A stretch of DNA of 64,000 nt from Escherichia coli (lineage in GTDB: Bacteria; Pseudomonadota; Gammaproteobacteria; Enterobacterales; Enterobacteriaceae), in NCBI RefSeq assembly GCF_003334815.1, contig NZ_QOWO01000003.1. The stretch is one strand, 5' to 3'. Position 1 is the stretch's first letter. Each line of letters opens with the position of its first letter. The notes below the pieces were generated by a model. It was not told the origin of the DNA. It did not search any database and was given only the letters and a program-made list of their open reading frames with translations. The position numbers and the translations under genes are program-made. Positions 12,017 through 12,125 of this stretch are shown here, piece after piece.

Positions 12017-12080
12017 CCCTTCCAGAATTCGATAAATCTCTGGTTTATTGTGCAGTTTATGGTTCCAAAATCGCCTTTTG

Positions 12081-12117
12081 CTGTATATACTCACAGCATA
12101 ACTGTATATACACCCAG
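12081..12117 (+). promoter_or_regulatory. Tandem LexA (SOS) boxes in the lexA promoter
   Basis: CTGTATATACTCACAG (12081..12096) and CTGTATATACACCCAG (12102..12117), both CTGT-N8-ACAG class, immediately upstream of lexA ATG 12126. Confidence 0.88.
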
Positions 12118-12125
12118 GGGGCGGA

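Follow-up and report, generated by a model that had tools for sequence, protein, structure and literature searches.

The two LexA boxes that lie upstream of lexA in the 64,000-nucleotide stretch of Escherichia coli DNA analysed here (hereafter the window) are almost certainly the canonical pair of LexA operators that forms the negative-feedback switch of the E. coli lexA-dinF operon (Table 1). The sites, their scores, positions and conservation and the identity of the genes rest on the present analysis, and binding, repression and UV induction on the cited papers. An earlier interpretation made from the DNA letters alone (the sequence-only reading) had described the locus as textbook SOS autoregulation of lexA-dinF, a description that matrix scores, promoter placement, conservation and published experiments all support.

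The element is already known in detail, and nothing about it is new as a finding. Descriptions of the lexA operators reportedly go back to 1981 (Brent & Ptashne; Little et al.), and the sites have since been analysed down to single bases (PMC7440846, PMC9210283). LexA occupancy, the effect of operator mutations and the RecA- and LexA-dependent rise of lexA-dinF mRNA after UV have all been tested in the literature, and all support the switch. Our check is chiefly of negative value: the annotation is confirmed, the box 2 sequence and the dinF start are corrected, the window proves to be without further credible LexA boxes, and the apparent clustering of SOS operators and stress regulators is at chance level.

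Table 1 Coordinates of the lexA-dinF regulatory elements and of other features of the window discussed in the text.
Feature	Position	Strand	Remarks
Weak third CTG-N10-CAG site, CTGGTTTATTGTGCAG	12040..12055	.	41 bp upstream of box 1
Probable -35 hexamer, TTCCAA	12063..12068	+	17 bp upstream of the -10 hexamer; assigned from spacing
Box 1, upstream LexA operator, 20-mer TGCTGTATATACTCACAGCA	12079..12098	.	Spans -20 to -1
-10 hexamer, TATACT	12086-12091		Inside box 1; read from sequence
lexA transcription start (+1)	12099	+	Derived from the numbering of PMC9210283
Box 2, downstream LexA operator, 20-mer AACTGTATATACACCCAGGG	12100..12119	.	Spans +2 to +21
Dcm site CCAGG within box 2	12114-12118		Read from sequence
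lexA CDS, repressor of both operators	12126..12734	+	202 aa; TIGR00498
Terminator-like hairpin, 13 pairs (8 G-C), then TTTGTTTTT	12745..12774, with T-run to 12783	+	Terminator scan
dinF (MATE efflux transporter)	12807..14132	+	Conserved start; 441 aa
uvrA/ssb LexA box	28966-28985		Matrix, 17.6 bits; divergent uvrA-ssb intergenic region
sRNA SraL, adjoining soxR	32937-33077	-	Rfam, 153 bits; known feature
Selenocysteine insertion element inside fdhF	53799-53853	-	Rfam, 87 bits; known feature

Two operators overlap the lexA promoter

The operators were located by reading the interval 11800-12400, which contains the stretch GCTGTATATACTCACAGCATAACTGTATATACACCCAGGGGGCGGAATG. The 16-mer core of box 1 (12081-12096, CTGTATATACTCACAG) is a perfect CTGT-N8-ACAG, and the core of box 2 (12102-12117, CTGTATATACACCCAG) is CTGT-N8-CCAG, one mismatch from that pattern. 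The sequence-only reading had reported two CTGT-N8-ACAG boxes; its coordinates, its 21-bp spacing and its description of box 1 were correct, but box 2 ends in CCAG. The 21-bp distance holds both from start to start and from centre to centre, leaving a gap of 5 bp between the 16-mers and of 1 bp between the 20-mers, and the 20-mer of box 2 ends 6 nt ahead of the lexA ATG (12126). Both boxes contain the CTG-N10-CAG palindromic core, the published 20-mer LexA consensus being TACTG(TA)5CAGTA (PMC6590174). Published sequences of both occur in Tables 4 and 7 of PMC3009722, and Kozuch et al. 2020 (PMC7440846) designate box 1 ‘operator II’ and box 2 ‘operator I’.

The transcription start was derived from published numbering, in which the Dcm target cytosines of the lexA promoter are -116, +17 and +45 (PMC9210283). 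The second cytosines of the CCWGG sites here lie at 11983, 12115 and 12143, and all three positions give +1 = 12099. With this start, the layout is one of promoter occlusion, box 1 holding the -10 hexamer and box 2 covering +2 to +21. The probable -35 hexamer was missed by a simple promoter scan because only 3 of its 6 positions match, and the GGTTCCAA columns are among the best conserved upstream of the boxes in an alignment of 80 Enterobacterales promoters.

The repressor is encoded immediately downstream. The lexA product is a TIGR00498 equivalog (289.5 bits against a cutoff of 110.95, with residues 1-199 covered), carries the Ala84-Gly85 self-cleavage site and the Ser119/Lys156 dyad, and its coding sequence is 100% identical to the MG1655 annotation. 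In undamaged cells, one LexA dimer occupies each 20-bp palindrome, the upstream dimer covering the promoter from the -10 hexamer to the transcription start and the downstream dimer covering +2 to +21, so that RNA polymerase is excluded and lexA, like the co-transcribed dinF, is expressed at a basal level. Once DNA is damaged, RecA on single-stranded DNA triggers LexA self-cleavage at Ala84-Gly85, which empties the operators and raises lexA-dinF transcription; as the damage signal fades, newly made LexA re-represses the whole regulon. Published experiments fit this scheme: when each operator was mutated, both proved functional and equivalent, and mutations abolished repression (Kozuch et al. 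2020, PMC7440846); LexA bound the downstream operator in EMSA with a Kd of ~15 nM (Lewis et al. 2021, PMC9210283); and lexA has been described as carrying two SOS boxes together with a basal level of expression (PMC2994835).

The box pair is highly non-random in the window

We scored the window with a 20-bp weight matrix built from 17 LexA boxes that MEME had recovered upstream of UV-induced genes (PMC3009722 Table 4). The lexA site was removed from training and the table has no uvrA entry, so none of the three sites being tested contributed to the matrix. Across ~64,000 start positions on both strands, the top three scores belonged to box 1 (19.3 bits), box 2 (18.4 bits) and the uvrA/ssb box (17.6 bits), followed by scores of 12.0, 11.9 and 9.9 bits, a gap of 5.5 bits below the third site; the mean maximum over 200 simulated windows was 12.07 bits. 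Exact score distributions give an expectation of 0.011 sites per 64 kb at the level of box 1, 0.021 at that of box 2 and 0.037 at that of the uvrA/ssb box, and about 1e-7 tandem pairs per window. The pair is thus highly non-random in the window. Boxes scoring below the accepted LexA range had been named beforehand as the result that would speak against the proposal; the training sites span 13.4-28.9 bits, and both lexA boxes score within that range. Their heterology indices, 8.1 and 8.8, were computed from our own 17-site matrix and are not directly comparable with published values, which use the Lewis et al. 1994 matrix.

The matches might instead reflect chance, or AT-rich promoter elements such as a TATA-like -10 rather than repressor sites. 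The bare pattern is indeed not enriched: strict CTGT-N8-ACAG occurs once in the window against 0.61 expected, with at least one match in 43 of 100 shuffles, and allowing one mismatch yields 18 occurrences against 16.8 expected. The -10 hexamer, moreover, sits in box 1. The significance therefore comes from the full 20-bp matrix, whose expectations for the single sites and for the pair leave little room for coincidence, and the columns most conserved across 79 species are the CTG/CAG triplets, which are no promoter elements. Together with the published mutational and binding evidence (PMC7440846, PMC9210283), this makes an origin in chance or promoter composition vanishingly improbable; conservation and published mutagenesis have already refuted it.

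Scanning for further weak boxes turned up no credible additional one in the window. The matrix reached at most -6.1 bits upstream of dnaB, 0.06 bits upstream of yjbJ, 1.1 bits upstream of zur and -4.3 bits in the soxRS intergenic region. Matches at 42711-42730 (nrfA upstream, 12.0 bits) and 52069-52088 (yjcO upstream, 11.9 bits) were rejected as chance: 64 kb should yield 0.9-1.0 matches of this strength, and both scores coincide with the mean maximum of the null.

The weak third site upstream of box 1 was likewise rejected as a working operator. It scored 7.3 bits in the first scan and 6.8 bits against a uniform background, a strength at which ~8 sites are expected per 64 kb, and its conservation is patchy, with occurrences restricted to Escherichia and a small number of Enterobacter-like genomes. 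In PMC7440846 the same site, probed as its reverse complement CTGCACAATAAACCAG (‘site III’), is the ‘putative operator III’ and is non-functional for repression.

The remaining high-scoring site, the uvrA/ssb box, lies 16.9 kb from box 1. This shared box has a published heterology index of 6.98 and a published distance of 170 nt from ssb (PMC9505508), which fits the box start at 28966 and the ssb start at 29136. The sequence-only reading had drawn attention to three SOS operators within 17 kb; the distance is right, but the significance that it implied is not borne out, as chance alone predicts such proximity. A simple pair-count estimate, with 26-57 LexA-regulated loci placed at random on 4.64 Mb, gives 2.4-11.7 pairs less than 17 kb apart. 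We therefore rejected the clustering of SOS operators as notable, two loci within 17 kb being expected by chance, and the proximity of zur and soxRS is an ordinary coincidence of gene order.

Conservation of the double operator

A LexA protein search, taking one genome per species, recovered 80 Enterobacterales loci, from Escherichia to Arsenophonus, 79 of them with usable upstream sequence. In 74 of these 79 species each box reaches 12 bits or more, at approximately -47 and -26 from the ATG, and selection maintains the two-operator arrangement across the Enterobacterales. Of the 74 two-box species, 62 have a spacing of 21 bp, 4 of 20 bp and 8 of 19 bp. The 16-mer of box 1 is unchanged in 75/79 species, a near-invariance that is expected where one sequence must serve as operator and -10 element at once. 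Box 2 stands at -26 from the ATG in 77/79 species and keeps CTGTATA-AC---CAG, with variation in its right half-site (CCCAG, ACCAG or AACAG). The phylogenetic footprint seen in the alignment comprises only the -35 element, the two boxes, the Shine-Dalgarno sequence and the ATG; conservation farther upstream of lexA is only 30-60%.

Within E. coli, a 106-bp segment (12030-12135) is present at ≥99% identity in 5,426 of 5,426 genomes, compared with only 2,437 genomes for the surrounding 2.6 kb at the same identity.

In the five exceptional species, one box is lost or degraded. Arsenophonus nasoniae retains a single box, and Candidatus Pantoea persica also falls in this group; box 1 is degraded in two Photorhabdus (L062 and L065) and box 2 in one MAG (L041). 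Arsenophonus and Candidatus Pantoea persica are insect-associated symbionts, and their lost or degraded boxes may indicate that selection for two operators is weaker where genomes are reduced.

Why two operators

The reason that lexA keeps two operators is a question acknowledged in the literature, on which the present comparative data bear modestly. One proposal, which recurs in the literature cited by PMC7440846, is that the two dimers bind cooperatively, the exact spacing of 21 bp, or two helical turns, placing them on the same face of the DNA and giving a sharper switch and a faster shut-off. The centre-to-centre distance in the window and its retention in 62 of the 74 two-box species are in keeping with this proposal, as is in vitro repression, with its Hill slope of about -2.5 (PMC9210283). 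The monomer-dimer equilibrium alone can, however, produce a slope above 1, and the 12 species with a spacing of 20 or 19 bp have both boxes intact, although drift of this kind would break strict helical phasing. The wild type and a single operator of matched strength showed the same induction, kinetics, dynamic range and fitness, with ‘no evidence of interdimer cooperativity’ in vivo (PMC7440846). The often-assumed cooperativity between dimers is thus not supported by that study or by the 19-21-bp drift in spacing, and we regard it as unlikely.

Alternatively, one of the boxes may serve a second purpose, as a site for another factor, as a post-initiation roadblock acting with the hairpin ahead of dinF, or as a buffer against mutation. 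We hold this to be quite improbable; if it were true, the tolerated range of 19-21 bp would signify dimers that act independently and not cooperatively.

A separate proposal concerns the sequence of box 2, in which the departure from ACAG creates a Dcm site, CCAGG. Box 2 might depart from ACAG so as to double as a methylation switch, with LexA binding adjusted to growth phase, and it is in line with this that CCWGG occupies the position in 50/79 Enterobacterales species and that methylation there is confined to stationary phase (PMC9210283). The same paper nevertheless reports that 5-methylcytosine leaves LexA affinity (14 versus 15 nM) and in vitro repression unchanged, that lexA expression and SOS induction are unaffected by it, and that LexA blocks Dcm and not the reverse. 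In our alignment, moreover, 29/79 species are without CCWGG, mostly through AACAG right half-sites, with box 2 otherwise intact, in agreement with the ‘AA’ variant described for more distant species (PMC9210283). A role as a Dcm switch is therefore very unlikely, and has already been largely refuted.

The dinF start and the lexA-dinF spacer

The dinF open reading frame has its first ATG at 12753, which gives a long form of 459 aa and an 18-nt gap to the lexA stop. Its product is a DinF equivalog (NF007690, 906.8 bits against a cutoff of 409), and positions 1-440 of the 441 in that profile align to residues 19-458 of the long reading frame; with profile position 1 at residue 19, the start at 12807 is favoured. 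RefSeq places the dinF start at the same position, and in 50 relatives the tblastn matches start near residue 1 of the 441-aa DinF. A distance of 19 nt between lexA and dinF, as previously described, consequently suits the first ATG only (18 nt), whereas the conserved start leaves a gap of 72 nt.

No LexA box belonging to dinF itself was found in 12720-12830, in which the best score was -9.6 bits, and dinF is described as having no operator of its own (PMC6590174). On tiling arrays, a single uninterrupted transcript that is induced by UV spans lexA and dinF (PMC3009722).

The spacer that separates the lexA stop from the conserved start of dinF contains a terminator-like hairpin, which overlaps the first ATG at 12753 (Table 1). 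The RNA fold of 12735-12810 has a free energy of -27.7 kcal/mol (z = -3.65). Non-homologous hairpins followed by a T-run occur in the lexA-dinF spacer of 26/48 relatives, compared with 56/480 (12%) shuffled spacers. This recurrence suggests that the hairpin may act as a partial terminator and keep dinF expression below that of lexA, in which case the co-transcription of dinF may be only partial. Our literature search found no description of a lexA-dinF terminator.

Source and gene context of the window

The window derives from an E. coli K-12-type chromosome and spans malF to alsC. Over 11600-14200 the window and E. coli K-12 MG1655 are 100% identical, and this segment occurs as a single copy in 5,426/5,426 complete E. 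coli genomes. The gene order of the window, taken from the MG1655 record, is as follows: malF, malE, malK, lamB and malM; ubiC and ubiA; plsB, dgkA, lexA, dinF, yjbJ and zur; dusA, pspG, qorA, dnaB, alr and tyrB; uvrA and ssb; soxS and soxR; and acs, the nrf genes, fdhF, the mdt genes, yjcS and the als genes. The genes that had been named from sequence alone (dinF, zur, soxR/soxS, uvrA, ssb, dnaB and yjbJ) are each annotated in this record.

Relative to MG1655 record NZ_CP032667.1, the window carries three single-base differences within its first 25.8 kb, at 4965, 16368 and 16397, and a 1-bp indel at ~34931 between yjcE and ghxP, so that its source is K-12-like without being identical to that assembly. 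In yjcS, an alkyl sulfatase gene, the window is without 88 bp (~60337-60344) that are found in the MG1655 record and are kept in 12/12 of the best-matching complete E. coli genomes listed. This deletion is bounded by 8-bp direct repeats, GCCAGGTG, and as 88 is no multiple of three, the reading frame would shift. According to the matching MG1655 record, the regions 5714-7294 (SopA-family protein) and 15332-16317 (DUF2713 protein) are frameshifted pseudogenes.

An Rfam scan of the whole window found no structured RNA near lexA. Elsewhere, the yjcO-gltP interval contains a tandem array (50845-51332) of 4.3 copies of a 113-bp unit with 96% matches, the copies of which match naRNA4, a REP/BIME-derived nucleoid-associated RNA; single naRNA4 matches lie at 106-176, 4335-4405 and 40315-40385.

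Comparison with known systems

The boxes show no difference from the published E. coli K-12 lexA operators (PMC7440846, PMC9210283), sharing both locus and sequence. Other Enterobacterales lexA promoters, including those of Yersinia, Serratia, Proteus and Pantoea, likewise have two boxes at approximately -47 and -26. They differ from the promoter described here in the right half of box 2, which is AACAG or ACCAG instead of CCCAG, so that the Dcm site is missing in many Enterobacterales; Erwinia, Pantoea and Tatumella also differ in spacing, with 19-20 bp in place of 21 bp. Within the same window, the uvrA/ssb box belongs to the same motif family. It is, however, one box shared by a divergent gene pair, overlaps the -35 region of uvrA and is not autoregulatory, unlike the lexA boxes, which lie at the -10 hexamer and the transcription start.

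More than one LexA dimer per promoter is also found at recN, with three boxes, and at colicin genes, with two overlapping boxes (PMC7440846, PMC2994835). The overlapping boxes of the colicin genes give very tight repression without basal expression, whereas the lexA boxes are separate, with their 16-mers 5 bp apart, and allow basal expression (PMC2994835).
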